A stretch of DNA of 24,629 nt from Patescibacteria group bacterium (GTDB lineage: Bacteria > Patescibacteriota > Patescibacteriia > Veblenbacterales > UBA10138), in the NCBI GenBank assembly GCA_049319925.1, contig JBMORS010000024.1, positions 1 to 24,629 of the forward strand, written 5' to 3'. Both the position numbers and the translations under genes were made by a program. Under the pieces are notes generated by a model. That model ran no database searches. It saw only the letters and a program-made list of their open reading frames with translations, and was not told the origin of the DNA. Positions 1 through 24,629 of the stretch are shown one piece after another (the first letter of the stretch is position 1; each line of letters begins with the position of its first letter).

Positions 1-565
1 TATCTGAATTAATTGTTAGGGTTCTAGTCTCATCTGAATTATTTTTTCTTATGGTTAGTTGATCCTTAAATAAGTTTAGATCGGCTTTGTTGAGATGGGA
101 AATTTCCGATACTTTTAAGCCGTAATTTAGTAGCAGTTCGACCAAACACAAATCTCTGAGTTTAATTAATTCCGCGCCAGTTTGTTGTTGAATTGTTTGT
201 CGCAGACTATCAGCCGGATCATTTTCCCAGGCGGATTCATTTGTTTTGGCGTTGTTTAATTTTATGTCAGTTTCGGTTGGCCCACTTTGGTTTGTTTTTT
301 TAAGATAGCGGCTAAAGGAACGCAAGGCGATTAAATGATAGTCGACAGTATTGTTTTTTAGGGAATGAGCCGGACCCAGTAGCCAACGGCTGTATTTTTG
401 TATAGCTAGATAATCAATTTTATCCAAACTAAGTTTTTCTTTGTTTAGCCAATCAAAAAAGCGTTTTAAATATAATTGATAATTTTGGATAGTTAAATTA
501 TTCTTGCCTGAGGTTTCAAGGTAGTTTAGGAAGTTTTTTATTTGGTCGGCTGGTGAATAGTTCAT
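1..565 (-). CDS. Tyrosine recombinase/integrase (XerC/D-like), 3' end runs off the window; box I catalytic Arg replaced by Lys
   Basis: Manual translation from ATG at 565: MNYSPADQIKNFLNYLETSGKNNLTIQNYQLYLKRFFDWL...TVDYHLIALRSFSRYL...LRDLCLVELLLNYGLKVSEISHLNKADL..., open to position 1. SAM-like N-terminal domain and box I (LRD..L.ELL...GL[R]VSE) are recognisable. Absent from the ORF track. Confidence 0.85.
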   Translation of the reverse strand, partial: MNYSPADQIKNFLNYLETSGKNNLTIQNYQLYLKRFFDWLNKEKLSLDKIDYLAIQKYSRWLLGPAHSLKNNTVDYHLIALRSFSRYLKKTNQSGPTETDIKLNNAKTNESAWENDPADSLRQTIQQQTGAELIKLRDLCLVELLLNYGLKVSEISHLNKADLNLFKDQLTIRKNNSDETRTLTINSD

Positions 566-592
566 AAGTAGTTTGTAGTAGTATCCTTGAAT

Positions 593-621
593 ATTTTACG
601 ACACATCTTAATTTTAGGCAA
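593..621 (-). promoter_or_regulatory. Putative sigma70 promoter of the recombinase gene
   Basis: Minus strand TTGCCT (621-616) - 17 bp - TAAAAT (598-593), about 28 bp upstream of the ATG. Confidence 0.45.
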
Positions 622-655
622 AATAGAACAATCAGTGGTTATTTAGTTTAGGCAC

Positions 656-684
656 TTGATTTTATTTGTTTAATCTGTTAGAGT
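656..684 (+). promoter_or_regulatory. Putative sigma70 promoter of rpsO-NYN-pnp
   Basis: TTGATT (656-661) - 17 bp - TAGAGT (679-684) with an extended -10 TG at 676-677. Confidence 0.55.
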
Positions 685-686
685 TA

Positions 687-753
687 CGTCGCTTAATCAT
701 TAAGGCGCGGACTTGGGTTTTGCGGAATTTATCCCAAAAACTCGACCCGTCGC
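687..753 (+). promoter_or_regulatory. Structured 5' leader of rpsO (candidate S15 autoregulatory element)
   Basis: GC-rich island with helices 692-696/700-704 and 707-719/744-753 (bulged), plus internal 715-722/735-743. The position matches known rpsO leaders. Confidence 0.4.
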
Positions 754-766
754 TAAGGCATAAAAT

Positions 767-1111
767 ATGCTAGACAAGATTACTAAAGATAAGATAATTA
801 AAAAGTTTAAAACTCATGACCAGGACACTGGTTCGGCTGAGGTGCAAATAGCCATTTTAACTGAGGAAATAACTCGTTTAACCGAGCACTTAAAGGGTCA
901 TAAAAAAGACTTTTCTTCTCGTCGTGGTTTGATAAAAAAAGTTAATCAGCGCCGTAAGTTGCTTAAGTTTTTACAAAGAGAAGATAAAACTAGTTTTGAA
1001 GATTTAGTTAAAAAACTAAAACTTAAAGTTAAAATTTCTGACCAATCAGCCATTTTAGGGGCCGATCCAGAAGAATCAACCGAGGAAATGCCAGAGGTAG
1101 GAGAAGTTTAG
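767..1111 (+). CDS. rpsO: 30S ribosomal protein S15 (uS15) with acidic C-terminal extension
   Basis: DTGSAEVQIAILT...HLKGHKKDFSSRRGLIKKVNQRRKLLKFL signature. Confidence 0.98.
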   Translation: MLDKITKDKIIKKFKTHDQDTGSAEVQIAILTEEITRLTEHLKGHKKDFSSRRGLIKKVNQRRKLLKFLQREDKTSFEDLVKKLKLKVKISDQSAILGADPEESTEEMPEVGEV

Positions 1112-1129
1112 TTTGTTAGACCGTTAATT

Positions 1130-1654
1130 ATGCTTAAACACAAAGATCAGCGCGTTGGAGTTTTTGTCGACGTGCAGAATATGTATTATTCGGCCCGAAA
1201 CCTTTATGGTTCCCGAGTTAATTTTGATAATATTCTGCAGCAGGCTGTAGAAGGCAGAAAGCTGATCCGAGCAGTGGCTTATGTAGTTAAAGCTGAATCA
1301 CCGGAAGAAATAAAATTTTTTGAAGCTTTGGACAAACAAGGTTTTGAAGTCAATATGAAGGATTTGCAGGTTTTTGTTGGTGGTGCTAAAAAAGGCGATT
1401 GGGATGTTGGCATCACTATAGATGCTATTACTATGTCTAATAAATTAGATGTAGTGGTACTGGTAACTGGTGATGGTGATTTTATGCCCTTAGTCCAATA
1501 TTTACAGTTTTTGGGTCAACGGGTGGAAGTAATAGCTTTTTCCGAAACAGCTTCCGCTAAATTAAGGGAACAGGCTGATGATTTTTTTGATTTATCAGCT
1601 GATAAAAGTAGGTTTTTATTAAGAGGACGTTTGGGAAAAATCCGACGTTCTTAG
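1130..1654 (+). CDS. NYN domain (LabA/DUF88, PIN-like) protein, putative RNase
   Basis: VFVDVQNMYY, KKGDWDVGITID and VLVTGDGDFMPLV motifs. Confidence 0.9.
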   Translation: MLKHKDQRVGVFVDVQNMYYSARNLYGSRVNFDNILQQAVEGRKLIRAVAYVVKAESPEEIKFFEALDKQGFEVNMKDLQVFVGGAKKGDWDVGITIDAITMSNKLDVVVLVTGDGDFMPLVQYLQFLGQRVEVIAFSETASAKLREQADDFFDLSADKSRFLLRGRLGKIRRS

Positions 1655-1687
1655 TAAATTTAAGATTATTAATTGGGTGTTGCAGGC

Positions 1688-1818
1688 AATAACTAAATAA
1701 AATAAGGAGTGTTATTTGAAGAGAGTTTGTTGGTCAGTTTAAAATTGGCAGCAGTCTCCTTTCAAATAACTAACCTCCTAAAGTTATTAAGCCGTGGCGT
1801 CCTATAAGGAGTTAGTTA
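1688..1818 (+). promoter_or_regulatory. Long pnp leader hairpin (1688-1788) with an alternative anti-RBS helix
   Basis: Pairings 1688-1694/1782-1788, 1705-1709/1775-1779, a perfect 10 bp 1711-1720/1761-1770, and an upper G-U-rich stem to about 1740. 1767-1779 is also complementary to the RBS region 1807-1818. Confidence 0.7.
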
Positions 1819-1821
1819 AAA

Positions 1822-4053
1822 ATGAGTAATGTAAAAACATTCAAGCATGAAGTGGCTGGTCGGCCGCTAGAAGTGGAGGTTGGCAAATTAGCCGGCCAGG
1901 CCCATGGTTCTTGTACTGTTCGCTATGGCGATACAGTGGTTTTGGCTACAGTTGTTCAATCAGCCGAGCCTAGGGAAGGAACAGATTTCTTTCCTTTGAT
2001 GGTTGATTACGAAGAGAGATTATATGCGGCTGGCAAAATTAAAGGTTCACGTTTTATTAAACGCGAAGGTCGGCCGACAGATGAAGCTATATTGACCGCT
2101 AGGGTAATAGACCGTTCTATTAGGCCATTATTCAAGGATAGTGAACGCCGTGATGTCCAGGTAATGGTTACGGTTTTGTCGGTTGACGGTGAAAACGATC
2201 CAGACGTACCGGCTTTATGGGCTGCTTCTTTGGCCTTGGCTATATCGCCGATTAATTGGGGCGGCCCGATTGCCGCTTTAAGGGTTGGTCGCATTAATAA
2301 TGAGTGGGTTTTAAATCCTTCTTACGAAGCCAGAGAAAAGTCTGATTTAGATGTTTTTATTTCGGCCACGGATAAAGAAGTGGTTATGTTAGAAGCTGGT
2401 AGTAGCGAGGTATTGGAAGCAGATATATATGAAGCCATAGCTTTTGGACACAAACATATTGCTAAGATGTTTCCTTTTTTGCAGGAAGTTATTTCCGCCT
2501 GTGCTAAAACCAAAACAACTGAACCTGATGTAACAATTGAGAATAAAGAGCAGGAAGCCAAACTTAGGCAAAAAGTGGAGCAGTATTTGCAGGGAAAATT
2601 TGAACCCTTGTTTGCTGGTAATGGTAAGCAAACCTTTAAGCAAGGTTTACGGGAAATAGAAGCTGGTTTAGACGAAGCTTTGAAGGCTGACAACGAAGTC
2701 AGCAAAGAAGACAGAGTCAAAGGCTTAAAGATGATAGAGGCTTATTTGGATAAAGCCTCCCGCCGGTATGTTTTGGACAGTGGTAAAAGAGTGGATGGCA
2801 GAGCTTGGGATGAAATAAGGCCCTTATCAGCTGAGATTGGAGTTTTACCTCGTACACATGGCAGTGGTTTATTCCAGCGGGGCGAGACTCAGGTTCTATC
2901 GGTAGTTACTTTAGGTAGTCCAGGTGATGAACAAACTTTAGATGGTATGGAAGAAGACGGCAAAAAGCGTTATATGCATCATTACAATTTTCCAGCTTAT
3001 TCAGTGGGTGAAGTTAAACCAGTTCGTTCACCAGGCCGTCGGGAAATTGGTCATGGCGCTTTAGCAGAAAAAGCTTTATTGCCGGTTATTCCTCAGGATA
3101 AGGAAAAGTTTCCTTATACCATCAGGGTAGTTTCTGAGGTTTTGTCTTCTAATGGATCGTCTTCGCAGGCTTCCATTTGTGGTTCGTCTTTGGCTTTAAT
3201 GGACGCTGGTGTGCCGATTACGGCACCAGTGGCCGGAATAGCCATGGGACTTATTACTGACCCGGCTGACCCTAGCAGGTACGCTGTTTTAACCGATATT
3301 CAAGGGTTAGAAGATCATTCCGGTGATATGGATTTTAAAGTAGGTGGTACAGCTAAGGGTATAACAGCTGTTCAATTGGACATAAAATTAGGCGGTATTT
3401 CTTTAGCTATAGTGGAAGAAACTTTAAATAAGGCCAAACAGGCTCGGCTTAAAATATTAGATATTATGCTTAAGGCTATTGCCGCGCCTCGGCCGGAATT
3501 ATCTCCCTATGCGCCCAGAATAGTATCTTTCTTTATACCGGTGGATAAAATTAGGGATGTAATTGGTCCAGGTGGTAAGGTAATAAATGAGATAATAGCC
3601 GCTACTGGCGTATCTATAGACATAGAGGATAGTGGTTTAGTGATGGTAACTTCTAATAATGCCGAAATGTCTGTTAAGGCGATTGATTGGATAAAAAACC
3701 TTACTCGTCAGGTGGTAGTGGGTGAAATTTACAAAGGCAAAGTTACTCGTTTGATGAATTTTGGAGCTTTTGTGGAAATATTGCCCAGAACCGAAGGGTT
3801 GGTTCATATTTCCGAATTAGCTTGGGCCAGGGTTAATACGGTTCAAGATGTTGTTAAAGTTGGTGATGAATTGGAAGTTAAGGTAATAGAAATAGACGAT
3901 CAAGGACGGGTAAATTTGTCTCATAAGCAGGTTTTACCTAAACCAGAGGGTTATGTAGAAGATAATCAGGCTTCTTATCGTTCAGAAAGACCTAGCCGTA
4001 ATTTTGGTAATAATAATGGCCGGGATAGACATTCTCGTCCCCCACGTCGTTAG
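1822..4053 (+). CDS. pnp: Polyribonucleotide nucleotidyltransferase (PNPase)
   Basis: Two RNase PH domains (RREIGHGAL, SNGSSSQASICG, GDMDFKVGGT), KH (VIGPGGK) and S1 domains; AAGGAG at 1806-1811. Confidence 0.99.
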   Translation: MSNVKTFKHEVAGRPLEVEVGKLAGQAHGSCTVRYGDTVVLATVVQSAEPREGTDFFPLMVDYEERLYAAGKIKGSRFIKREGRPTDEAILTARVIDRSIRPLFKDSERRDVQVMVTVLSVDGENDPDVPALWAASLALAISPINWGGPIAALRVGRINNEWVLNPSYEAREKSDLDVFISATDKEVVMLEAGSSEVLEADIYEAIAFGHKHIAKMFPFLQEVISACAKTKTTEPDVTIENKEQEAKLRQKVEQYLQGKFEPLFAGNGKQTFKQGLREIEAGLDEALKADNEVSKEDRVKGLKMIEAYLDKASRRYVLDSGKRVDGRAWDEIRPLSAEIGVLPRTHGSGLFQRGETQVLSVVTLGSPGDEQTLDGMEEDGKKRYMHHYNFPAYSVGEVKPVRSPGRREIGHGALAEKALLPVIPQDKEKFPYTIRVVSEVLSSNGSSSQASICGSSLALMDAGVPITAPVAGIAMGLITDPADPSRYAVLTDIQGLEDHSGDMDFKVGGTAKGITAVQLDIKLGGISLAIVEETLNKAKQARLKILDIMLKAIAAPRPELSPYAPRIVSFFIPVDKIRDVIGPGGKVINEIIAATGVSIDIEDSGLVMVTSNNAEMSVKAIDWIKNLTRQVVVGEIYKGKVTRLMNFGAFVEILPRTEGLVHISELAWARVNTVQDVVKVGDELEVKVIEIDDQGRVNLSHKQVLPKPEGYVEDNQASYRSERPSRNFGNNNGRDRHSRPPRR

Positions 4054-4087
4054 GCTAATATTAGCCAAATAAATCTATAAAGGTTTT

Positions 4088-4120
4088 AATCTAGCCCCGC
4101 GTAAGTGGGGCTAGATTTTG
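4088..4120 (+). terminator. Intrinsic terminator after pnp
   Basis: 13-bp stem AATCTAGCCCCGC / GTGGGGCTAGATT (one G-U), GTAA tetraloop, short T tail. Confidence 0.85.
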
Positions 4121-4140
4121 TATAGTATAGTGTATTAAGC

Positions 4141-4201
4141 TGTGCTTATTTGTGTGGATAAATTGTGATTACTGTGGATAATGAACATAATATGTGCTCA
4201 T
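4141..4201. promoter_or_regulatory. DnaA-box cluster
   Basis: Two perfect TGTGGATAA (reverse complement TTATCCACA) at 4153-4161 and 4173-4181, with degenerate same-orientation TGTG-led 9-mers at 4141, 4164 and 4193. Confidence 0.65.
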
Positions 4202-4245
4202 AGTATATTTGGTTTTTTTGTTTAATTTTAGCCAAAAATAGCTTA

Positions 4246-4274
4246 TTGACTGATTTTAAAAAGTATGCTATATT
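4246..4274 (+). promoter_or_regulatory. Strong sigma70-type promoter upstream of an ORF-less structured region
   Basis: TTGACT (4246-4251) - 17 bp - TATATT (4269-4274) with extended -10 TG at 4266-4267. Confidence 0.75.
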
Positions 4275-4280
4275 AAAGAT

Positions 4281-4645
4281 GTACTTTGAAAAAGGAAAGT
4301 AAATAAAGATCTGGTGCTAGCTCAGAAATTTGGCCACAGTTCTTTTCTTACTGTCCTTTTTGGAACTGTTAACTGGTGGCAGTACCAAAAAAAATTTTGA
4401 AACAAAAAGCAAAAACGGCGCTTCTGCCTGAAAAAGGTGGGAGAGTAGCCACAGGACGGTAAGAACAAAGCGTACTTTATAATCTAGCCAGTGTACGCGC
4501 CTAATAAGTCGCTTGAGGATACATTCTTAGTAAGTCTCAAAACAATTTGGGATTTGCTAGGTAGCGCAAGCGTCGCAATTAAGGCGCCAGTACGCCATTA
4601 ATTAAGTTTTTTAAAAAATGGGCGCCTACTGGCGCCTATTTTTAT
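4281..4645 (+). ncRNA. Candidate ~360-nt structured non-coding RNA or long leader, family unidentified
   Basis: Bounded by a promoter and a terminator-like hairpin, with no long ORF. Helices 4312-4318/4381-4387, 4336-4342/4363-4369, 4345-4357/4453-4465 (13 bp), 4470-4475/4493-4498, 4510-4515/4567-4572. Confidence 0.45.
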
Positions 4646-4650
4646 TTTTA
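4582..4650 (+). terminator. Intrinsic terminator-like hairpin closing the candidate ncRNA
   Basis: Perfect 11-bp AGGCGCCAGTA (4582-4592) / TACTGGCGCCT (4627-4637), an inner CGCCATT/AATGGGCG stem, then ATTTTTATTTTT. Confidence 0.75.
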
Positions 4651-4668
4651 AATTTCTACAATACCCGC

Positions 4669-4697
4669 TTGAATAGGTTTGGGCTTTGGGTTATAAT
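4669..4697 (+). promoter_or_regulatory. sigma70 promoter of dksA/traR-lspA-comM
   Basis: TTGAAT (4669-4674) - 17 bp - TATAAT (4692-4697). Confidence 0.75.
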
Positions 4698-4738
4698 TAC
4701 TCCACCTTTATTGGGTGAATTTTTGTTTATTAAATATT

Positions 4739-8323: not shown

Positions 8324-8343
8324 TATTTTTTTAAAAAGCGAAA

Positions 8344-8380
8344 TTAATCGCTTAGTCTGGCGCCAGATTATTATGATTAA
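8344..8380 (-). terminator. Hairpin just upstream of the M23 start, followed by a U-rich run on the minus strand
   Basis: TTAATC/GATTAA outer stem and near-palindrome TAGTCTGGCGCCAGATTA (8353-8370). The minus strand continues TTTCGCTTTTT. Confidence 0.35.
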
Positions 8381-8449
8381 ATGTTTACTGATATTGGTAA
8401 ATCCCTTGTTCGTTTAGTTTAAACAGCTATGACAAAATAAAATAATCAG

Positions 8450-8550
8450 CCTGCCCGACATAGCCTGTTGTTGATTAACCTTAAGCACCTAGTGTTATTT
8501 ATTCACTCACTAGAATTATTCAACCAGACTACAGTCAGATGGCAGGCGGG
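8450..8550 (+). repeat. ~100-bp repeat unit 1
   Basis: CCTGCCCGACATAGCCTGT...TTATTCACTCACTAG...ACAGTCAGATGGCAGGCGGG; shares conserved blocks with units 2 and 3. Confidence 0.85.
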
Positions 8551-8655
8551 CCTGCCTGACATAAGTCTGTGTTTAACTAGCCGTTGGAATAATTAAGCGT
8601 TTATAGGTCGCTTATTTTTCCACTAATATTTAAGGATAGTCTAGTGACAGGCGAG
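8551..8655 (+). repeat. ~100-bp repeat unit 2 (tandem with unit 1)
   Basis: CCTGCCTGACATAAGTCTGT...TCGCTTATTTTTCCACTAATATTTAAGGATAGTCTAGTGACAGGCGAG; the 3' half aligns gap-free with the reverse complement of unit 3. Confidence 0.8.
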
Positions 8656-8706
8656 TCGCTTTTTAAAGCCGCTTGACCAAACGATTTAAGTAAACAAGTG
8701 ATTTAT

Positions 8707-8735
8707 AACATACCATTTTATACCCTCTGGGTCAA
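8707..8735 (-). promoter_or_regulatory. Putative promoter pointing toward the M23 gene
   Basis: Minus strand TTGACC (8735-8730) - 17 bp - TATGTT (8712-8707) with extended -10 TG. Confidence 0.55.
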
Positions 8736-8761
8736 AGTAAATAAAAAGAATTAAGAATCAA

Positions 8762-8855
8762 AATTCGCTGGTTGGTGAAACGAATTAAGGTAAATTTTTA
8801 TACGCTGTTAATACCTTTTAAAAAACCGTGATTTGCTCCGCTGGTTGGCGAATCG
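8762..8855. repeat. Two 17-bp direct repeats, each within a small hairpin
   Basis: CGCTGGTTGGTGAAACG (8766-8782) and CGCTGGTTGGCGAATCG (8839-8855), 2 mismatches, 73 bp apart. Confidence 0.6.
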
Positions 8856-8892
8856 TGCTTCGTGATTCTAAATTAAAATTTTTAGACATTAA

Positions 8893-8995
8893 CCCGCCTG
8901 CCATTGGACTGTACTTAAGTATTAGTGTGTGAATAAGCGATATTTAAAAAACTTAGGTTTAATCATTATTTAAGGTACAGGCTATGTCGGGCAGG
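8893..8995 (-). repeat. ~100-bp repeat unit 3 (inverted relative to units 1 and 2)
   Basis: 8977-8995 is the perfect 19-bp reverse complement of 8450-8468; 8893-8904 is the reverse complement of 8539-8550. Confidence 0.85.
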
Positions 8996-9030
8996 GATTT
9001 AGGATTTAATAAATTTACTCCCCTTACTTC

Positions 9031-9060
9031 TTGTCTTAAAGTGTTTTAAAATGCTAGCAT
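9031..9060 (+). promoter_or_regulatory. Putative leuS promoter
   Basis: TTGTCT (9031-9036) - 18 bp - TAGCAT (9055-9060) with extended -10 TG. It overlaps the track's ATG 9051, which argues for a downstream start. Confidence 0.45.
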
Positions 9061-9092
9061 TATATAAGCCTAAGCAATTAATTAACGGTTTT

Positions 9093-11555
9093 ATGGTGAA
9101 GTATGATCATGAGTCTGTAGAGGCTAAGTGGCAAAAGATTTGGCAGGATAATAATTATTATCAAGCTGATGATAATTCAACCAAGCCTAAAAAGTACGTT
9201 TTGGATATGTTTCCTTACCCATCGGGTGCTGGTTTACATGTCGGACACGTGGAAAGTTACACAGCAGCTGACATTATTAGTCGCTATTTAAGACTTAAGG
9301 GTTTTGAGGTTTTGCATCCCATGGGTTGGGATTCTTTTGGTTTGCCAGCGGAAAATTATGCGATTAAACAAAAAATCCATCCTCGGTTAGTTACGCAAGA
9401 CAATATTAATCGTTTTCGTCAGCAATTAAAACGTTTGGGTTGTTCTTATGATTGGTCCAGAGAAGTTAGTACCTCAGAACCAGATTATTATCATTGGACA
9501 CAGTGGATATTTTTAAAACTTTTTTCTAAGGGCTTGGCTTATCAAGCAGTTGTACCTATTAACTGGTGTCCGTCTTGTCAGACCGGACTGGCTAACGAAG
9601 AAGTAGTGGAGGGGGTTTGTGAGCGTTGTCAGACGCCAGTAGAAAAAAAACAGAAGAAACAATGGCTTTTAAAAATTACTGATTATGCTGATCGGTTGCT
9701 TAAGGACCTGTCTACTCTAGATTGGCCGGAAAAAATAAAGACCATGCAAGCCAATTGGATAGGTCGTTCCGAAGGTGCCCATATTAAATTTAAGTTAGTA
9801 GATGATGATTTTTTTATTTCTGTCTTTTCTACCCGACCCGATACTTTGTTTGGTGTGACTTATTTGGTAGTAGCGCCTGAGTATTCGCAACTTGATAAAT
9901 TGGTTAGGTTGGAACAGCGTAGTGAGGTGGGTCGTTATATAGAAAAAGTTAAAGGAGTCAGTGAGTATGATCGAACGGATTTTAAAAGAAAAAAAACCGG
10001 AGTTTTTACAGGCAGTTATGCTATTAATCCGGCTACTAACCAACCAGTACCAATTTGGGTAGCTGATTATGTGTTGGCTTCTTATGGCACAGGCGCTGTT
10101 ATGGCCGTGCCAGCTCATGATGAAAGAGACTTTGCGTTTGCTCAAAAGTTTGGTTTACCAGAAAGAGAAGTTATTGTGCCAGTTAATTCAGTTAGGCGAA
10201 CTGTTCGTAAAGCTTATTTAGGTGAAGGTCGGTTGGTCGATTCCGGGCAATTTACCAGATTATCTTCAGAAGTAGCTCGTCAGCGGATAACTAGTTGGTT
10301 AAAAGATAACGATTTAGGCGAGCCGGCTGTTAATTATAAACTTAAGGATTGGGTTTTTTCCAGACAGCGTTATTGGGGAGAACCAATTCCTATAATTCAT
10401 TGTTCGACCTGTGGTACTTTACCCGTAGCGGAAAAAGATTTGCCAGTGACTCTACCAGATGTGGAATTCTATCAACCATCAGGAACCGGTGAATCGCCTT
10501 TGGCTAATATTGTTGATTGGGTTCAGACAGTTTGTCCTAAATGCGGCCAACCAGCTAGTCGAGAAACAGATACTATGCCTCAATGGGCTGGTTCTTCTTG
10601 GTATTGGTTAAGATTTTGTGATCCCCATAACAAAGAAGCAATTTTTAGTTCCAAGGCCTCGTCTCATTGGGCGCCGGTGGATATTTATATCGGTGGTGCT
10701 GAGCATGCGGTTTTACATTTATTGTATGCTAGATTTTGGCATAAGTTTTTGTATGACCTTAAGTTAGTTAATCATAGTGAACCGTTTTTGAGATTAGTTA
10801 ATCAGGGCATAATTTTAGCTGCGGATGGCCGTAAAATGTCCAAGAGTTTTGGTAATGTAGTTAATCCGGATGAGGTTATAGCTACTTGGGGGGCTGATTG
10901 TTTGCGTTTATTTGAAATGTTTTTAGGTCCACTGGAAGATGCTAAGCCCTGGCAGGACAAAGGTATTGTTGGTTTAAGAAGATTTTTGGAAAAAGTTTGG
11001 AATTTAGGACAAGATCTTTCGACTAAATCGGCTGATTTGGCAGTTAGTGATTTAGAAGAGTCAGCTGATTTTTCACATCAACTTAATTTTACAATAAAAA
11101 AAGTTACCGCTGATATAGAATCTTTTCGTTTTAATACAGCCATCAGCAGTTTGATGGAGTTTACTAATTATTTAACAGCTACCAAAAATAAAGAGTCCTT
11201 AGGAGCCCGTCTACTTGGCTTTAAAAACCTTTTAATTTTACTTTATCCTTTGGCACCTCATATTACTAGTGAATTATGGGAATTGAGTCAGTCCAAATTA
11301 GGTTCGGCGGAACCTATAGATCAACAAACTTGGCCAGCTTATCAGTCAGCAGCTTTACAAAAACAGTCTGCGGTGTTGGCCGTTCAGGTTAACGGTAAAT
11401 TGAGAGGACAATTGAATTGTTCTCATAATTTATCAGAAGCCGAGATTGTTAGCCAAGCCCAACAATTGCCAATCGTAGCTAAATACATAACGGATAAAAA
11501 AATAAAAAAAGCTATTTATGTGCCGGGTAAAATAATAAATTTTGTGATTGGTTAG
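9093..11555 (+). CDS. leuS: Leucine--tRNA ligase
   Basis: DMFPYPSGAGLHVGH (HIGH), CP1 editing motif GTGAVMAVPAHDERD, and KMSKS. Start placed at ATG 9093 (MVKYDH...), where LeuRS similarity begins. Confidence 0.98.
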   Translation: MVKYDHESVEAKWQKIWQDNNYYQADDNSTKPKKYVLDMFPYPSGAGLHVGHVESYTAADIISRYLRLKGFEVLHPMGWDSFGLPAENYAIKQKIHPRLVTQDNINRFRQQLKRLGCSYDWSREVSTSEPDYYHWTQWIFLKLFSKGLAYQAVVPINWCPSCQTGLANEEVVEGVCERCQTPVEKKQKKQWLLKITDYADRLLKDLSTLDWPEKIKTMQANWIGRSEGAHIKFKLVDDDFFISVFSTRPDTLFGVTYLVVAPEYSQLDKLVRLEQRSEVGRYIEKVKGVSEYDRTDFKRKKTGVFTGSYAINPATNQPVPIWVADYVLASYGTGAVMAVPAHDERDFAFAQKFGLPEREVIVPVNSVRRTVRKAYLGEGRLVDSGQFTRLSSEVARQRITSWLKDNDLGEPAVNYKLKDWVFSRQRYWGEPIPIIHCSTCGTLPVAEKDLPVTLPDVEFYQPSGTGESPLANIVDWVQTVCPKCGQPASRETDTMPQWAGSSWYWLRFCDPHNKEAIFSSKASSHWAPVDIYIGGAEHAVLHLLYARFWHKFLYDLKLVNHSEPFLRLVNQGIILAADGRKMSKSFGNVVNPDEVIATWGADCLRLFEMFLGPLEDAKPWQDKGIVGLRRFLEKVWNLGQDLSTKSADLAVSDLEESADFSHQLNFTIKKVTADIESFRFNTAISSLMEFTNYLTATKNKESLGARLLGFKNLLILLYPLAPHITSELWELSQSKLGSAEPIDQQTWPAYQSAALQKQSAVLAVQVNGKLRGQLNCSHNLSEAEIVSQAQQLPIVAKYITDKKIKKAIYVPGKIINFVIG

Positions 11556-14562: not shown

Positions 14563-14591
14563 TTGACTTTTGGGCTTTGATGTGATATAAT
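14563..14591 (+). promoter_or_regulatory. Near-consensus sigma70 promoter of the membrane protein / giant protein unit
   Basis: TTGACT (14563-14568) - 17 bp - TATAAT (14586-14591) with extended -10 TG at 14583-14584. Confidence 0.85.
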
Positions 14592-14668: not shown

Positions 14669-15379
14669 ATGGCTAGTCAGGAAAATTTAGAGCAGGATAA
14701 ATTAATGGGCCATAATTTAGGTTTAGGTTTGTTGGCGGTATTGGCGGTGATTTTTGGAATTTGGCAAATTAGAAATTCAATCAGATTGCCATTTGCTCCC
14801 AAAATTTATAATGATGATAGTCAAATGACAGCTGCCAACGAAGCTGTTTTAAGGGCTAGTGATACAGATGGAGATGGTTTATCAGATTATGAGGAAATAA
14901 ATTTTTATCGAAGTAGTATTTATTTAAAAGATACTGATTCCGACGGAGTGGATGATAAAATAGAAGTCGATAAAGGGGAAGATCCTAATTGTCCTCAAGG
15001 CCAAGATTGTCTTAGATTTTCCGCTCCAGTTAGCCAAAATGATTTAACAGAAGATGATTCAATAGCCTTACTTGATCCGCAAGATATCAGGAAAATTTTA
15101 AAAGATAATGGTGCGACTGAGGAAATGTTAAATAAATATAGTGATCAGGAGTTAATTAACATTTATAAGCAGGTGGCTGGGGATACGGGCAGTGCGGTTC
15201 AGACCGGCACTTTGGATACCAGTTTACAACTGACTGAAGAAGAGAAAAGTCTTTTAAGAGGTATGTCGGGTTCTGAATTACGTCAATTTTTAATAAGTGG
15301 TGGAGCTAAAGCTGATGATCTAGTTGGTTTAGACGATAAGGCGCTTCAGGATACGGTTAAACAATTGTTTGGTTTATAA
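14669..15379 (+). CDS. Single-TM protein with thrombospondin type-3-like Ca-binding repeats and a duplicated C-terminal helical motif
   Basis: TM helix LGLGLLAVLAVIFGIW; DTDGDGLSDYEE and DTDSDGVDDKIE DxDxDG repeats; CPQGQDC. Confidence 0.85.
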   Translation: MASQENLEQDKLMGHNLGLGLLAVLAVIFGIWQIRNSIRLPFAPKIYNDDSQMTAANEAVLRASDTDGDGLSDYEEINFYRSSIYLKDTDSDGVDDKIEVDKGEDPNCPQGQDCLRFSAPVSQNDLTEDDSIALLDPQDIRKILKDNGATEEMLNKYSDQELINIYKQVAGDTGSAVQTGTLDTSLQLTEEEKSLLRGMSGSELRQFLISGGAKADDLVGLDDKALQDTVKQLFGL

Positions 15380-15391
15380 TTAAATTGAATC

Positions 15392-18300
15392 ATGTTTAAA
15401 CGAACACCCCTAAAACATTTATCAAGCCTCGCTGCTATTTTGACGGTGATGGTTATTTTATTGGGTGGTTATGTTTTTACACCCAAACCAGCCAGAGCTA
15501 TTCCTGTGGAAGATGTTTTGGGCGCGCCCATAAAATTAGCTAATTTTATTTGGGAAAAAGTAGAGTCAGCCGTCAGCTGGACCTTGGAGCATGGTGCTGC
15601 CATTGGTTTTAGAAACGCTGCTCGTACTTTTACTCAAAAAATAGCTTATGATGCGGCCGTTATGTTAGCATCGGGTGGTACTGGACAAACGCCGCTTTTT
15701 AGCTGGAAACGATTGGGTCAATCAGCTCAAGATGCGGCCGATGCTGCCGCTGGTTCTTTTTTGGACGGTATAACCAGTGGTGAAGCTTGGGGAAATTTTA
15801 ATGTTTGTCAGCCAACCGGTCCTAATGCCCCGTCGGTTAAGTTGATTATTGGTCTGACAGCTTTTAACGAACAAAAACCTCCGGTACCCAAATGTACTTT
15901 AAGTCAATTAAGGACTAATTGGGATAAAGCTTTAAACGATCCAACTGAACGTAAAAAATTCTTAAGTAATTTTAAAGTGGCTTTAGACCCTAAACAACAT
16001 GATTTGGGGGTAGCTTTGAATGTTCAGCAAAATTTGGTCAATGATGCTAATAGTAAAAAAGAATTGGCTAAATTGGAACAAGCAGCTAATCAGGGTTATA
16101 AAGATATTGTTCAATCTATCACCGGTTTTATTAAAACACCGGCTCGTAGCGTGGCTAACACTAAAGATTGGTCAGTACAGCAGGCTTTAAATGAGCCCTT
16201 GGTTTATACCGGCGATATTATGGCCGATGCTTTGGGAACCTTTACTAATACTTTGGCCGCCCGTTTGTTAAAAAGATTAATGCAGGGTGAAATACCGAAC
16301 CCAGCTTCCATTGGTCAAGGTTCAATTTTCGCGGCCGAGTTTGGCAGTGGTGTGGATTATGCCACCAGAGTTAACACCTCTATCGCCACGCCGCAAATTG
16401 TTGGCGGGGAAGTGATTGATGTTATAAGTGAATTTTCCAATTGTCCGCAGAATCAGGATTATGCGGCGCTTAATAACTGTACAATTGATTCTAAATTTGA
16501 ACGAGCTTTAAGGGGAGCTCAAGAGGGCAAGGCCTTGACGGTTCAGGAAGCAGTTGATCAAGGACTGCTTAATGGTAATTGGCCATTTAAGTTAGAAAGA
16601 CCGCGCGAGGTTAGAATACCCGACGCTTGGTATTTGTCTGATGTAACTAAATTAAGATTAGCTCGTATTTTGCCTTTGGGTTGGGAACTCGCTGCCCAAA
16701 AAGTCGGTTCACGCGGCATTACCCTTAATGAAGTTTTAAATAATTTTAGTCAACCCTACATTAATAACGACGTCAATCAGCCTAATCCTTATTATCATTT
16801 AATAGATCCTAATTGGATTTTAAAGGCGCCGTCAGCCCAGTGTCGCCTGCAAGGTTCTGGTCAAATTTTGGAACAGCAAGGTTCTAATCGTCAGGAATCT
16901 TGTGTTGATACTCAGCACTGTGTGGTGGAAAATCCCGACGGTACTTGCGCTTCTTGGGGTTACTGTACTAAAGAAAAAAATGTTTGGCGTTTAGGTGGAG
17001 ATAGTTGTGAATTTCCAACTGATTCTGGCCAAGCACCTTTTGCTTCTTGTCAGACTTTTTCGGCTGTGTCCGGTGGAGATACAGCTTCTTATCTAATTAA
17101 TTCTTTAGCTAGTTTTAATGATGGTGTTTGTACTGGAGCGGCTGGTTGTGGTTGGTATTCTACTGATTTTAATCCTTTAAGCACCGGAGCCGACCGCTAC
17201 AATTTGAATAATCGTCTTTATGTAAAGAATTTTGACCGTTATGCCTGTTCGTCTAATGATGAAGGTTGTACCTCTTTCTTACGTTTAAGTAATATTTCAA
17301 CTTCTTTAACAGCTGCTGGTGCTAATCCCGTGGAAAAGGTGGTAAATCAAGTTACAGGTTCATCAAGTCAGGTTTATTCAACCTATGCTACGGTAACAGA
17401 GGCTCATTTAAAACAAGCACCTGATTATTTAAAATGTTATGATAATGATCTAAGTAATGATTCAGCTGATTGCAAAAAGTATATTGGTTTTTGTTCAGCC
17501 AACGAAGTTGGTTGTGAACTTTATACTCCCCTGGATGGCACGCCAGCTGTACCTGGTCAGCCGCATCCGGATAATACTTGTCCAGGTGATTGCGTGGGTT
17601 ATCAATCTTATGAACAACAGGCTAGTAGTTTTAATCCGTCTGATAAAGCAACTAAATATTTTATAGCCAAGACAGCTCAATCTTGTCCGGCCGAGGCTGT
17701 TGGCTGTAGTGAATTTACCAATGTTGGTTTAGGAGAACAAAAAGAATACTTTACCGAGCTTAGGCAATGTATAAATTTGGGTGAGGGTGATAAAACTTAT
17801 TACACTTGGATAGGTTCGGATTTGACTGGTTATCAGCTTAAGCCTTGGCAGTTAAAGGCGGCTCCGGCTGATGATGATTATGATAGTTATCCGCCGCCGG
17901 CCACGATAGATAATTCTTTGGATTGTACGCCAGGCGGAATTTATCCAACCAGTAATCCCGATTGTAAACAATTTTACACTTCGGACGGCGCGGTTTATTA
18001 TCGTTTGGCTTCCAAAACTATCATAGCTTCAGATAGTTGTACTCGTTACCGTAAAACCGCCAGTAATCAGGCTGATTGTTTAGCTACGGGAGGCGGTTGG
18101 GAGGGCAATGCTTGTTATTATCGGGCTATAGCCAGCGCCAGTCAGACCTGTTCGGCTCAGTATAATGGTTGTCGTGAATATAAAGGGCCTAATGCCAACA
18201 GTGTAAAATTGGTTTTTCCTATTTCTACTTTTGGCGACAAAGAAGCTAATACTCGTTTAACTTATGATGCCACCCCATCCAGTGGTTGGTATTCAGGTAC

Positions 18301-21300
18301 ACCATCTAACGAGTCAACTTCAGCTTTTGGCCATTCGTATGATTCAGGTTCAGATGGCGTAATTTATAAGGATGTGGTGGGTTCGGTGGCCGCCGGACAA
18401 AAATATTTAGTGTCAGTTTGGGCTAAAAAAAGCGGCTTAGGTTCGGTGGCGGTTGTTGAAGATCAGCCGGAGGTTGTTTTAACTTCTCAGTCCGTAAATA
18501 ATTTAGGCTGGCTAAATCGATTAAGCAATTCTTTAAACCAGGCTAACAAGTTAGCTTGGCAAAATTTATTAGGTGGTTGGTCTTTGATTAATGAAGCCGT
18601 GGCTCAAACTGCCAGTGTATCTTTGCAGGCCAGTCCATCAGTTTTTGATAATACTGGTTTTAGTAATGCTTTTTCCACTAATTTAAGCTGGTCAGCTTCT
18701 ACTACCTCGACCGATGCCATAACTGTTAATATTCCCGGAGTTTTAAGTACTTCTTTCAAAGCTGACAGCCGTTGTTTTTATGCCGGTTCCAAAACCGATC
18801 AGCCTTGTACTAATAGTGATAGTTGTCGAGATTTAACACCGGCTTGCGTACCGCAGGATTTTAAGTGTAATAGTGGTTTGAATATTAATAAGGCTTGTTC
18901 ACCAACTGAAAATAGTTTTTGTCAGCAACCAACAGCCACTTGCCAATCAATTGATTATAAGTGTTCGGGCGGGCCCTATGATGGCAGTGCTTGTAATATT
19001 CAAAACGGTAGTTCGGATTGCCGTAATACCACAGCTACCTGTGTGGAGGGTAAATGTTCTAATAATGCCGCCTTATCTTGTACTAGTGATGCAACTTGTC
19101 GTAGTACCACGGCGGTTTGTGTAGCCACTAAAAAAGTTTGTTCTAATGAAAATACTAAACCTTGTTCAGTTGATGGTGATTGTCGTTATCCTACAGCTCA
19201 GTGTTTATCTACTATCAGCAAGTGTGACTCTGGTTTTAAGTCTGGCCAGGTTTGCAGCGTTAAGGATGATTGTATAGACAAGACGCCGGTTTGTAAGTCT
19301 GAACCAACCGGACCTAAATCCGGTACCATCCAGGTAAATTTGCCGACCCAAAGTTTTAGTGATGGTTATACTTTGCCGGTTTCTAAAACTTATGATTTAA
19401 CCGTTGTTTATAATGGTACTACCACGGTAAATCGTCAGGCGCCAGTACAAGTAAATAATCCACCAGGGACTTTTAACATAACAGCGCCAATTGACGGTTC
19501 TAGTAACCAATCTTTAAATCCGACTATCAGCTGGACAGCCTCAGCCCGGGCCAATAAATACGATATTGCTATTAGTGGTGGCACTACTTACAATACCACT
19601 ACTACGGCCACCAGTTTTACTGTGCCTAGCAATATTTTAACAGCTAATACTAGTTATACCGTTAAGGTTACAGCTAAAAATGACAGTTCTAAAATTCAGG
19701 AAAAAACCGTGCAGTTTACCACTCAAGCGTTAGCCACGCAGAATTTTACTATAATTTCCCCAGCTGATAATCCTTTGACAAACGATAATGAAATGGAAAG
19801 TCTACCTTTGCCTTTTACAGTAAGTTGGTCTAAATCAACTGATGCTGTTAGTTATGTGGCTATTTTGGAACAGCCGCAGGGGACGGTGGTTTTAGCCAGG
19901 ACCCTCGGAAAAGACGATTTCAGTATGCCGGTTAATGAAGGGGCTTTAAAGTTAAATACTCCCAATACCACCATTAGGGTAATTGCTTATAACTCGGCTG
20001 GTTTGGCTAACGAACAAAAAGTAGCTTTTCACACGCAAAGACCACCCACGGATTTTAATACCACCGATCCGCATGGAAGTAAATCTGTGTCAGCCAAAGT
20101 TAGTACGTCTCGGCCTAATTTTACTTGGCAGAAATCTTATTGGACGGAAACTTATAATGTCAGTTTGTGGCGTTATGATGAAGAGTCACCCACCAGTGAT
20201 CACTTGGTTAAGATAGCGGATAAGGCCGTTAACGGTTCTGTAACTAATTTATTTTTTGATGATTTAGACAAATTGGCTGGATTTACCGATTTAACTACAG
20301 GCCAAATTTATGCTTGGCGTATTACAGCCATTAACAAAGCCGGACAGGCTATTAGTGACGGCGGTCAATATTCTTATTTTATCTTATCAACTTTTACTCA
20401 GGAGTATGGGTCGTCTGATATTAATTTTTTTACTTTACCTAAAGAAGTTGGGTCTAATAAGGATATTCAATTACCATCAGCACCAACTGGTTTAGCCGCT
20501 AACCTGACGGCTTGTTCAGGTGATTGTCCGGCTGGTAAATATAAGGTTACTTTAACTTGGCAAGATAATAGCGATAATGAAACTGGTTTTACTGTTTATC
20601 GCGGTGATAATGGTCGAGCTGTTAGGCTTATACAAGTAGCCGCTAATCCTGGTACAGTAAGTTTTATTGATAGGGGTGTGGATCCGGATGATGGTCAGAC
20701 TAATAAAGGTTTAGCTGTGGACAGCCGATTTGTTTATCAGGTTAGAGCCTACAATACAGGCGGCGAATCTAAAGGTTTGACAGCCGTGGTTAGTACGCCG
20801 CGTACAACCATTTCAACTGATATTGGAAACGGCGAGACGCCGTCTGTTAACCAAGGCACAATTTATTTAAAAATGACTTTGAATGGTCAACCAATAGCTG
20901 GCGGTGGAGGTTACAGTCTTAATAATAATACGACAGGTAATAGTATTCCGGTTACTGGTTTGGTTTTGAGGTCTAATGAAGCGCCAGGCAATTTTGATTT
21001 TATTTGGCGCTCCGGCAGTCCAACCGGAGTTAGTGGGGCTACTGTTTATTCGGTAGAAGCTAACCCCGGCGGTAGTGAATCTTGTGTTGGTAATGACTGC
21101 GGTCCGGTTAGTGGTATTTTAGCGGCCGACAGCACTTTAACTTATACAGTAAACTATGTCAGCGCGGCCGAGTCTAGTCTTAATCCTCAGGCAACTATCA
21201 CCTTTAATTTAAACAGCAGTCAGTTAACTAGTGATTGGCAGCTTTATACCGTAGGTCCAATTGAATTACCCACTGGAGCAGATATTAGCCAAGGCGTTAG

Positions 21301-24300
21301 GGTACAACTCCAAGCGGCCGGTGTAAGATTCGTATCTGATAATATAACTGTACAAGAAGTTGGTGATAGATTCTTTTTGAAAAAAGATTCTTGGACCACG
21401 CCTGGCGTTTGTCAGCCCTCTGGCGACCAGCTTAGGTATTTGGGTTGCCGGGCCTATAAAGATAGGCAGAACCGAGCTTATTCTTTTACTGGTTTTGCTA
21501 AAATTTGCCGGCAGGAAGCTGTGGGTTGTGAAGCTTTGGTGGATACTAAAAATTCAGTAAGTCCGCAAGCTCAAAATTTTGTTATCAGTGGACAAAGTAT
21601 ATCTACTACCAAAGATGAAGTAGTTTATCGCATTTACGATAAAGCTAAACAGTGTTCAGCTCAAAATCAGTCTTGTCAAAGGCTTGGTCAACCCGGCTTT
21701 ACTGGCACTGGTGCTATTTCCGCTTGGTCTGACAAATTTATGAAGCTTGATCCTGATAACTTTAACGACAGCCCGACTTCACCGCTTTGTACTAAGGAAC
21801 AAGATCGCTGCCAGGAATATACAGCTAGCGGAAAAACTTATTATTTTAAAGATCCAGGCAATAGAACTTGTGAATATAAACAGCTTAGAGCTGGCCAGCC
21901 TTATGACTGGTATAAAAAAGGTACCAGTGAGCCTTGTAATCTACTTACCAATGGTAGCTTTGAGAATTTTTCCGCTGTCAGTGGTCTAAAAGGTTCGGGT
22001 CAGATAAACGATAACACTCAGGATTATTTTGTTGGTTGGGAAAGAAACGGTGCCACTGGCAACGAAGATAACCGGGGTCAATTATATGCTCAGCCGTCTT
22101 TTAACGGTCAGTATTGGGGTAGCAACATTTTACAAGTTAAAAGTACTAATGTTCAGTATTCAGGCGTGTGGTCGTCTCATATTACTTTAGAGCCTCAAGC
22201 TAACAATCGTTTATTCTTGATTTCCGCCCAAATATATGTGCCCAAGTCCGAACAGTTGCAAGGCGATTGGACATTGTCTAGGCACGCTTATCCTAAAGTT
22301 GGCACTGGTTGTGGCGGCAGCACTTGCCATCATTACGATGTCATAGCCGGTAATCCTACTGTAACTAATAGTGATGATAAAGGTAGTTGGCTTAGTCGTA
22401 GTTATATTATAAAAACTAGGCCCAATATAGACACTTTGTCGGTTGGTTTAATAACCAACGAAGGCGGTTTGCGTCAAACCAGCACTGTTTATTTGGACGA
22501 TGTCCGTTTATTGGAATTGCCTTCTAGTTTAACCGACGATCAAGCCAAAGAATTTTTGGCTGTGCCTTATGCTTATTTGTGCCCAGCTGAAATGTCTTCT
22601 TGCAAGGCTTTCCAGGATAATACCTTAACCAATCGGACTTATTATTATTTGGATAATGGCAAGTTAGACAGAACAACTTGCGGCGGTAAGGTGGGCGAAA
22701 AAGATGGTTGTTTGTTACTAAATAATTTATCTATGGGTGGTGAACTGGCTTGGTCAGCACCGTTAACTTATGAACAAAGCCGTAGTCAGGATAACACTCA
22801 GGTATCGCCCTTGGCGCCTAAAGGTGTTTGTTCCAATAATTTAAGTCAGACTTGTCAAAAGTCAGCTGATTGTCCAGGTGATGACGCCTACTGCTCTTTT
22901 GGTTCAGGCGTCCAACCTACTAGTAATACTATTTTGAAAGTTCAGCGCGATCGAGTTTGCGCCGAGTGGTTAGCTTGTCAAACTAGCACCACCATTACCG
23001 ATTCAGCTGGCAAGTCTAGGGAATTATGTTATTCTTTGGGCCGTTGTAATCAGGCTGCAATTGGCAACGCGGCCGGCGGCTGTGGTAACTGGCTGGAACC
23101 GGATAATGAACAACATCCTCTAGATGAAACTGATTATGTGGGTCGAAATATTACCTGGGCTGGTCAGGATTACACTGGTTACTCCATTCCGGGTTTGTGC
23201 TCGTTAGATGCCATTAATTCCAGTTCGGCTTGTTCGGTTTCTTTGGCTAGCACTAAAGCTTGCCGTTTGTATCCAGAAGTAGATTCCCCCTTCCCGGCCG
23301 AAGTAGCTACCTGGGATTCACAGAGCAAAGAAGCTAAGTTGGTCAGTCGGGCGCCGGGTTATAAGGACGCTAATGTTTGTCAGCCAAGTACCGATCCAGA
23401 TGAAAATTGTGAGTGCGCTTATCAGCGGGCGGTTTATAAGAATGGTGAAACCAGATTCTATAATTACCGCAGTCTGGCGTTGCCGACCATTAATGAACCA
23501 CCAGTTACTTGTGAATGTGGTACGGTTGGTTTGACGGACGATTGTCAGGAATTGTGCACGGAAAGAAGTAATCTTAAGCAGATAACTTACGCCCAGGGCT
23601 TAAAAGGTTATTGTTTGGAAAAAGATTCTTCCCGCAAAATAAACAACGGTATGGCCAATGCTTGTTTAACCTGGTTGCCGGTTGATGTAGTGCAAGGCGA
23701 AGTTTCCATTTATGACGATAAACCCAAGGCAGGTTTCACGGCACCGGGCGGTGGTGATTTATTTTATTGCACGGCCGCTCAGGGTAATGTCCAAAATGCC
23801 GGTGTCACCAAAGTTTATACTATGAATCCAATGGCTACTGCCTTACCTTATAATGGTAATACCTCGGTTTTACGTAAAGGGTATTGGGCTAAAACTGTTG
23901 ATGGAGCAGACTGGACTTATGGTAATGCTATTGGCGGCGTGGGCTGCGTTAATAAACCAATTGGTGTGTTTGATTTTAGCGATAGGCATGGTACTTGTTT
24001 GTCTATAAATAATATTAATAGTAATGTTTATTATCCTTTAGTTATTAATGGTCATGTGGATGCGGAATTGGGATTCGTGGTCGGTTTATCTGATTTGGAA
24101 AAACAACTAGGAGGTTTATCGGTTATTGACAGTGTTCAAATAGATTATCGTTTAAGAAAGTTTGGTGAAACGAGTGATCCCAATAATCCTTATAGTCCTA
24201 TCAAACTGAATCGTCAGGTTGTTAATGGTGCTCAGCAAAGGGCTTCTTGTAGTCAGTCTGGTTATAACAATTGTTGGATAAAAGCCAAGATAGATTTTAG

Positions 24301-24629: not shown

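Follow-up and report, generated by a model that had tools for sequence, protein, structure and literature searches.

The type IV secretion systems (T4SSs) of Patescibacteria were reportedly treated by Wang et al. 2023, as cited in PMC12102498 and PMC12857230. They provide the only T4SS reported to be essential for the growth of its owner (on the host), with the underlying contact and transport being unknown: in Southlakia the system, for which no adhesin has been identified, is required for epibiotic growth (PMC12102498; PMC12857230), and a 2025 T4SS review describes it as essential and its function as unknown (PMC12857230). The survey of Quinonero-Coronel et al. 2025 (PMC12102498) presents this Patescibacteria-clade system as chromosomal and devoid of a relaxase, lists VirB1/2/3/4/6/8-like, TrsD, PrgF, and other components, and states that an adhesin such as PrgB went undetected in Patescibacteria. 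Here, we analyzed a 24,629-nucleotide stretch from a Patescibacteria group bacterium (GenBank assembly GCA_049319925.1, contig JBMORS010000024.1), hereinafter the window, which is the whole of contig C24 of an 835-kb bin (191 contigs, ~95% complete). The open reading frame (ORF) at its 3' end, covering 37.5% of the window, codes for a giant Cys-rich secreted protein:

15392..24628, forward strand: giant ORF, 3,079 codons in frame +2 with the ATG at 15392, open at its 3' end at the last base of the contig

The giant heads a gene cluster with PrgI/VirB3, TraC/TrsD-like, VirB4, VirB6-like, and pilin-like genes, the same as described for the Patescibacteria T4SS in the survey (PMC12102498). Neither the giant nor two further proteins discussed below, namely a stand-alone ~280-aa homolog and a partner with TSP3-type repeats, figure among the T4SS components named in the sections of the survey considered here. 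Like PrgB/aggregation substance and PrgA/PrgC of Enterococcus pCF10, a system of the mating-pair-formation FATA (MPF-FATA) type, the giant is a large Sec-exported surface protein encoded with a monoderm T4SS, and a proposed role in target-cell contact is common to both. No sequence or domain similarity to these proteins was found (no Pfam match to the PrgB/antigen I/II type); the giant has no LPXTG-type anchor at its C-terminus, exceeds them two- to threefold in size, is rich in Cys, and combines other domains. A functional analogy might also be drawn to F-like TraN, which is Cys-rich, T4SS-encoded, and recognizes a recipient receptor through its variable part; however, TraN resides in the outer membrane of diderms and has ~600 aa, and we find no evidence of homology. 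The Pfam search of the giant returned no match to the TraN family at E<=1, Pfam-A presumably holding a TraN model. In size, beta-sandwich spacers, lectin-like modules, and the presence of a Ca-binding element in the system, the giant recalls the RTX/BAP-type and Omnitrophota giant adhesins; yet it has no long single-repeat arrays and no RTX or type I secretion signal. Its rigidity would instead come from ~100 disulfide-forming Cys in family-specific modules, and it is single-copy, class-wide, and T4SS-linked.

The headship of the T4SS cluster and the role of the N-terminal domain in that cluster are the most informative facts about this gene, and they were missed in the original prediction, a reading of the window alone that had proposed a host-recognition or attachment structure. 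We propose that the giant is probably a subunit of the T4SS cluster that has been expanded in this class into a Sec-exported, disulfide-stapled host-binding arm. It takes up ~1% of a 0.8-Mb genome, heads the cluster, and combines lectin-type modules with fast-diverging segments, which makes it an obvious candidate for host recognition.

The linkage is seen in four relatives with the same gene order that span 35–72% identity (loci L002–L005), where the genes run KsgA, TSP3 protein, giant, a ~1000-aa protein, a ~620-aa protein, PrgI (VirB3), TraC-like, and VirB4; the cluster is MPF-FATA-related. The order upstream in L002 is identical to that of the window. In the window's own genome the T4SS genes lie on contigs C58 and C139, with a VirB4 94% identical to that of L002; from the synteny with L002 we infer that the giant adjoins them there as well, contig C24 ending inside the gene. 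A sample of 60 genomes yielded the giant in 56/61 and VirB4 in 59/61; 34 genomes carry both on a single contig, and in 32 of these the giant and virB4 share a strand, with the giant 10–22 kb upstream. In the remaining sampled genomes the two are on different contigs, most of these being fragmented bins and three being good assemblies. The ~1000-aa protein that follows the giant (L002:20743-23871; homolog in G000 C58:775-2166) begins with at least six transmembrane (TM) segments and continues as a hydrophilic domain of ~700 aa, a layout resembling 'extended VirB6', with no Pfam match. In hhalign comparisons, the giant's domains showed no relationship to the neighboring cluster proteins. As separate observations on these clusters, one member of the class (G424:C2:647008-693538) carries two copies of the whole giant-to-virB4 locus in inverted orientation, separated by ~10 kb and scoring identically, and in one relative (L003:26021-28500) the genes for PrgI, TraC-like, and VirB4 are interspersed with three four-helix-bundle genes of the 23S_rRNA_IVP family (PF05635).

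The second line of evidence comes from the first domain of the mature giant:

15500..16411, forward strand: N-terminal helical domain, aa 37–340, with the invariant Cys pair C139/C168 (from the secondary structure of the model)

Outside the class, a profile of aa 37–485 matched small ORFs in 14 genomes; the majority have 274–363 aa and a few 548–1,204 aa, the match being limited to the helical domain. Eight of these loci, chosen solely by the N-terminal profile match, were fetched, and 8/8 encode PrgI, TraC-like, and VirB4 after a homolog of the ~1000-aa protein, with the gene order preserved. The stand-alone ORF was re-found with a hidden Markov model (HMM) in seven of the eight, in all seven directly upstream of the ~1000-aa gene, and a TSP3 protein is directly upstream of it in six (blastp). 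Comparison of the giant's domain (~40–320) with the stand-alone ~280-aa secreted proteins gave a strong match (hhalign 98.9%, E 3.2e-17), and the two share the signal-peptide site, the Cys pair, and an IKTPG motif. In the ESM Atlas, the stand-alone protein falls in an unnamed cluster that counts 2,269 members. A short-query search with aa 37–340 returned only fragments of giants, the small relatives surfacing only with the profile, and the window's own genome has no separate stand-alone copy. As judged from these profile matches, the N-terminal domain is a conserved component of the T4SS-like cluster across the phylum. Given the homology and the same cluster position, the giant is therefore the orthologous holder of this slot, a ~280-aa secreted cluster protein extended by 2,200–4,000 residues in one class. 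Being small and tractable, the stand-alone version lends itself to structural and genetic work in the other classes. In one locus of another class (L016:7871-10615, reverse strand), the slot protein has 915 aa and matches the N-terminal profile twice (aa 76–231 and 724–815); thus, moderate expansions also occur outside the giant-bearing class.

The giants themselves were found only in the window's class and are near-universal in it. A homology search recovered 113 relatives of 2,500–3,800 aa, all from Patescibacteria and all annotated 'hypothetical', and a whole-library profile search, counted in clusters of 50% identity, gave 1,179 at E<=1e-30, which are the giants, and 2,728 when relaxed to E<=1e-3. 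With aa 340–1025 as the distribution query, the family was detected in 23/24 sampled genomes of the class, which is ABY1-type by the NCBI names of the matches. The earlier suggestion of a core gene holds within this lineage, where a 300-genome sample of the class has the family in 273/301 genomes (250/269 high-quality ones; 219/237 genera) at one locus each, typically as a single giant open frame of 2,400–4,300 aa, but fails as a general feature among candidate phyla radiation (CPR) bacteria, with 0/376 genomes in the other classes of the phylum. The apparent absence in genome G453 reflects a divergent giant missed by the short query. The window's protein has the signal peptide, the helical N-terminal and alpha/beta domains, and the three Cys-rich modules A, B, and C with their invariant Cys that mark the family.

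This distribution and the linkage also bear on a different interpretation, namely that the giant is a general envelope or S-layer-type scaffold, a rigid disulfide-rich coat whose adjacency to the T4SS is conserved gene order and nothing else. The giant is near-universal, single-copy, and, like coat proteins, very large; the upstream housekeeping synteny is equally conserved; in locus L006 and several other genomes the giant is not beside virB4; and no interaction was predicted, a complex prediction of giant aa 37–485 with the partner's ectodomain having scored 0.00, which is itself evidence neither for nor against binding. A coat would, however, hardly account for a stand-alone N-terminal homolog at T4SS-like genes in all eight other-class loci, in the same slot wherever it was located. 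The linkage is 32/34 where this could be scored, and Pfam detected no SLH or other wall-binding domain in the giant. We regard a coat function as unlikely.

Several points nevertheless weigh against assigning the giant to the T4SS. No experiment or structure prediction ties it physically to the apparatus. In the fifth relative examined (L006), KsgA, the small gene, and the giant are kept with no T4SS genes within 10 kb; in the other two of the 34 single-contig genomes, distances of 42 and 63 kb separate the giant from virB4; and G321, G413, G095, and G432, though well assembled, have the two at a great distance or on separate contigs. The order of Sua5, MFS, and KsgA upstream is also conserved, such that adjacency may in part reflect stable gene order. 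Two class members (G238 and G417) have the T4SS cluster with an unrelated ORF of 480–665 aa in the giant's slot. The N-terminal domain is modeled as helical at low confidence (pLDDT ~30–70), a CBM-type fold predicted from models would be no proof of glycan binding, and no cell-wall or membrane anchor was found in the giant. The ORFs occupying the slot in the two exceptional genomes (L020:9298-10743, reverse strand, 482 aa; L021:8198-10192, reverse strand, 665 aa) are Cys-poor and without relationship to the giant; they may represent a replacement of the slot protein.

The giant is a real gene and not a chimera. The window has ~89% of a ~3,480-aa protein, with ~400 residues missing at the 3' end. 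Its closest homolog, P0002, a 3,475-aa protein of the same genus encoded on a 252-kb contig of another assembly, aligns in one piece (residues 1–3078 to 1–3079) at 72% identity; this full-length colinearity answers the possibility of an assembly chimera, which had been named as what might overturn the original prediction. P0003 to P0005 are likewise colinear, P0002–P0005 coming from four other assemblies. Independent Logan contigs from the run that is probably the source cover the ORF as three k-mer-overlapping pieces without foreign joins, and near-identical fragments occur in runs from three further studies (groundwater, biofilm). That the long frame was joined from different genes or strains during assembly could be entertained in view of the very fragmented bin, the branches of the Logan graph at 20466-20539 and 23387-23447, and the end of C24 and the start of contig C116, which are homologous in position and different in sequence. 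Set against the colinearity with homologs from four other assemblies, the k-mer overlaps, and the recurrence of the same architecture in hundreds of genomes, such an artifact is extremely improbable, and the graph branches point to strain variants.

The missing end could be located in part. A conserved C-terminal domain of ~190 aa (DNWGWC ... G-x-I-I-V-x-P at its end) is present in 141/208 long family members and was found on contig C116 of the same bin (HMM E 1e-43; 77% identity to P0002). Window positions 24365-24629 and C116:1-130 encode the same protein stretch at ~50% identity with no DNA match, and no sequence overlap joins C24 to C116, nor C116 to C58. Judging by this mismatch, C116 may stem from a sister strain; two strains seem to be mixed in the bin where the gene is most variable, which is probably the cause of the assembly break there. 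The C-termini of full-length homologs read ...IIVKP and contain neither an LPXTG motif nor a TM segment. Of the stop and anchor that a continuation of the contig was expected to reveal, the C-terminal domain was recovered on C116 and an anchor was not.

At the other end, the sole hydrophobic segment of the giant is aa 6–32, followed by an A-R-A motif, and a 'P..AQA' cleavage site is kept at the same position across the family and in the stand-alone homologs, thus indicating a cleavable Sec signal; no other membrane segment is present in the giant. The features of the protein, apart from the N-terminal helical domain given above, are as follows:

15392..15499, forward strand: Sec-type signal peptide, aa 1–36, with the A-R-A cleavage motif (only hydrophobic segment of the protein)
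16412..16846, forward strand: conserved alpha/beta domain, aa 341–485 (pLDDT ~80–95, kept family-wide)
16847..18193, forward strand: Cys-rich module A, aa 486–934, ~25 invariant Cys (invariant columns and motif list)
18194..18457, forward strand: first half of CBM-like jelly roll 1, aa ~935–1022
18773..19294, forward strand: about six tandem ~29-aa repeats with four Cys each (24 Cys), aa 1128–1301 (Cys spacing)
19349..20791, forward strand: FN3-like units, aa 1320–1800 (Pfam fn3, jackhmmer)
21239..21931, forward strand: Cys-rich module B, aa ~1950–2180 (family coverage, invariant Cys)
21932..22531, forward strand: CBM4/16/22-type jelly roll 2, aa ~2181–2380
22589..23791, forward strand: Cys-rich module C, aa ~2400–2800 (coverage, invariant Cys, pLDDT 80–95)
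23792..24391, forward strand: hypervariable segment, aa ~2801–3000 (identity to P0002)

The giant has 102 Cys (3.3%), densest at aa 500–1000, 1128–1301, and 2000–2800, with ~55 invariant across the family alignments. By BLAST coverage, the family-wide conserved parts are aa ~50–1020, ~1950–2180, and ~2400–2800, with 100–110 of the 113 homologs covering aa 50–1000 and 1950–2050, and ~70–100 covering aa 2400–2800. Module A comprises repeated C-x(4-7)-G-C-x-x-[YF] hairpin motifs, with confident beta structure at aa ~730–930, and module B weakly resembles part of it (module-A HMM matching aa 2015–2165, i-E 1.3e-3). The model shows the first half of jelly roll 1 at aa ~934–1025 and its second half resuming at aa ~1932. 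The insert in between (~1022–1931) is present in only the four closest relatives, and in P0008, a relative without it, both of its flanks are contiguous; therefore, a variable block of ~900 aa appears to be nested inside jelly roll 1. The four-Cys repeats are part of this clade-specific insert and lie in a region covered by only the four closest homologs. In the FN3-like region, fn3 (PF00041) passes the gathering cut-off (32.6 bits versus 25), jackhmmer delineates three tandem units at aa 1320–1601, and a fourth at ~1686–1800 was read by eye.

The properties first read off the sequence, namely a continuous ORF with a Sec signal, a helical N-terminus, ~100 Cys, FN3 and CBM sandwiches, and no catalytic domain, were all borne out, as was the claim that the scaffold domains are uncharacterized, the conserved modules having no match among Pfam, NCBIfam, or PDB entries. 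Pfam gave fn3 as the single hit above the cut-off in the giant, and NCBIfam and PDB sequence searches gave nothing; across the whole protein, the C-terminal piece, and the neighbors, these three resources returned nothing beyond fn3 and TSP3. A weak OspC match (E 0.019) was taken as compositional. AlphaFold models built on alignments of 64–66 sequences predict a CBM4/9/16/22-type beta-jelly-roll fold, with a sequence identity of just 11–19% to solved CBMs; PF02018 is below threshold in the giant and precomputed in many homologs. Fold searches with model A (aa 30–1025) against PDB, AFDB clusters, VIA-wide, and Atlas recovered only the start of the CBM and loose helical hairpins, and those with model BC only the CBM; the Cys-rich modules and the alpha/beta domain had no match in PDB, AFDB clusters, or Atlas, a result weaker than a clean negative since both models exceed 900 residues and were searched whole, such that a single-domain match might have been missed. 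An ESM Atlas feature search with aa 485–1025 gave low scores only, and the window's own genome has no paralog of the N- or C-terminal domain. On these models, the Cys-rich modules appear to be new folds.

Such modules need extracellular disulfide formation in a minimal cell. The 835-kb genome has five DsbA-like (Thioredoxin_4) ORFs on contigs C33, C164, C7, and C112, two of them in tandem on C33; for its size, the genome thus invests heavily in forming disulfides outside the cytoplasm. VKOR was not found in it.

The export signal and the missing anchor would also be compatible with the giant being a substrate of the T4SS-like system, an effector or nutrient-scavenging factor that would leave through Sec before being released or passed to the host, after the model of pertussis toxin in the Ptl system, which lacks a coupling protein. 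In line with this, the fetched cluster stretches carry no annotation of a VirD4 coupling protein, and few t4cp genes near virB4 are reported in the survey (PMC12102498). Nevertheless, neither Pfam nor NCBIfam detects a catalytic or toxin domain in the 3,079 aa of the window's ORF or in the last 676 residues of P0002, a 350-kDa protein with multiple disulfides is an unlikely translocated substrate, and a modular build of FN3 and CBM domains typifies proteins that stay on the surface. We therefore consider a role as cargo decidedly improbable.

The giant is 75–89% identical to P0002 over most of its length, with the identity dropping to 48% at aa 1500–1700 and to 24–34% at aa 2800–3000; the division into conserved and variable segments sought for the protein thus emerges as modules A, B, and C kept family-wide, and divergence concentrated at aa ~1500–1700 and ~2800–3000. 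Near-identical strains in runs X3 and X4 have no contigs over 23400-24629, which is only suggestive at their low depth. Across the class, VirB4 is 66–82% identical in full-length matches versus 33–46% for the best-conserved module of the giant, indicating that the giant evolves much faster. A diversity-generating retroelement was considered as the source of the variation and rejected: the 95%-complete genome shows no RVT_1 and no template repeat, absence not being proven thereby. There is no second copy of any part of the giant's DNA in the genome.

The gene immediately upstream of the giant encodes the TSP3-type partner:

14669..15379, forward strand: gene for the 236-aa partner protein, ending 12 nt before the giant's ATG
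14563..14591, forward strand: sigma-70-like promoter candidate, TTGACT-17-TATAAT with extended TG, 11/12 matches (consensus match only)

The partner has a short N-terminal tail, one TM helix (aa ~17–34), two DxDxDGxxDxxE calcium-loop repeats of the TSP3 type (Pfam TSP3_bac at 22.3 bits, slightly below the cut-off), and beyond them a CxxGxxC motif and a helical C-terminal motif. Among 42 homologs, D65/D67/D69/G70/D73/E76 and D88/D90/D92/G93/D96/E99 are invariant, and a homolog is directly upstream of the giant in 5/5 fetched loci. The promoter candidate lies 78 nt upstream of the partner gene, the regional count of promoter-like sites not exceeding the shuffled expectation, and no terminator-like site was detected between the two genes.

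Taken together with the linkage, this organization suggests a scheme in which the giant and its partner would be co-transcribed, with the giant exported by Sec and oxidized outside the cell. The ancestral N-terminal domain would hold it at the T4SS-like apparatus or the envelope, possibly via the Ca-binding partner, and the long rigid Cys-rich stalk would project the jelly rolls and fast-diverging segments toward the host cell. There, the projected segments might bind glycans or proteins of the host surface and so position the secretion machine, making the giant the adhesin and host-range determinant of the T4SS-like system. Host recognition or attachment, as first put forward, stands as a reasonable inference.

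A more specific version, which we put forward tentatively and hold to be less probable than the general proposal, is that two conserved extracellular components of the T4SS have gone unrecognized, one a single-pass membrane protein that binds Ca and the other a small helical protein that is secreted, the second of which has been built out in one class to a disulfide-stapled arm of 2,500–4,300 aa at the tip or mouth of the apparatus, in a VirB5-like position, with its hypervariable segments setting the host. If so, this would be a new monoderm T4SS architecture and would supply the missing adhesin of the system. The stand-alone homolog is, like VirB5 (TraC of pKM101, CagL), small, Sec-exported, helical, and encoded beside VirB6-like and pilin-like genes, and an adhesin role at the tip would suit the extension into a giant; we treat this resemblance as a lead and not as membership. 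Neither the giant's N-terminal domain nor the stand-alone proteins have a Pfam or PDB sequence match to VirB5/TrbJ, and the low model confidence of that domain renders a comparison with the three-helix-bundle fold of VirB5 meaningless.

The remainder of the window has no tRNA or Rfam family. Two intergenic stretches, at 4054-4714 (~660 bp) and 8324-9050 (~730 bp), are long for a genome this compact and contain no ORF of at least 80 aa, tRNA, or Rfam match. A tyrosine-recombinase gene of the XerC/D or phage-integrase type (window 2-565, reverse strand), truncated by the start of the contig, adjoins rpsO, an NYN-domain gene, and PNPase. Finally, the leucyl-tRNA synthetases encoded in two of the related loci (L003:1654-5520, 1,288 aa; L004:3284-6325, 1,013 aa) have an inserted alpha/beta-hydrolase domain, and that of the window (9051-11555) is the plain 834-aa form.

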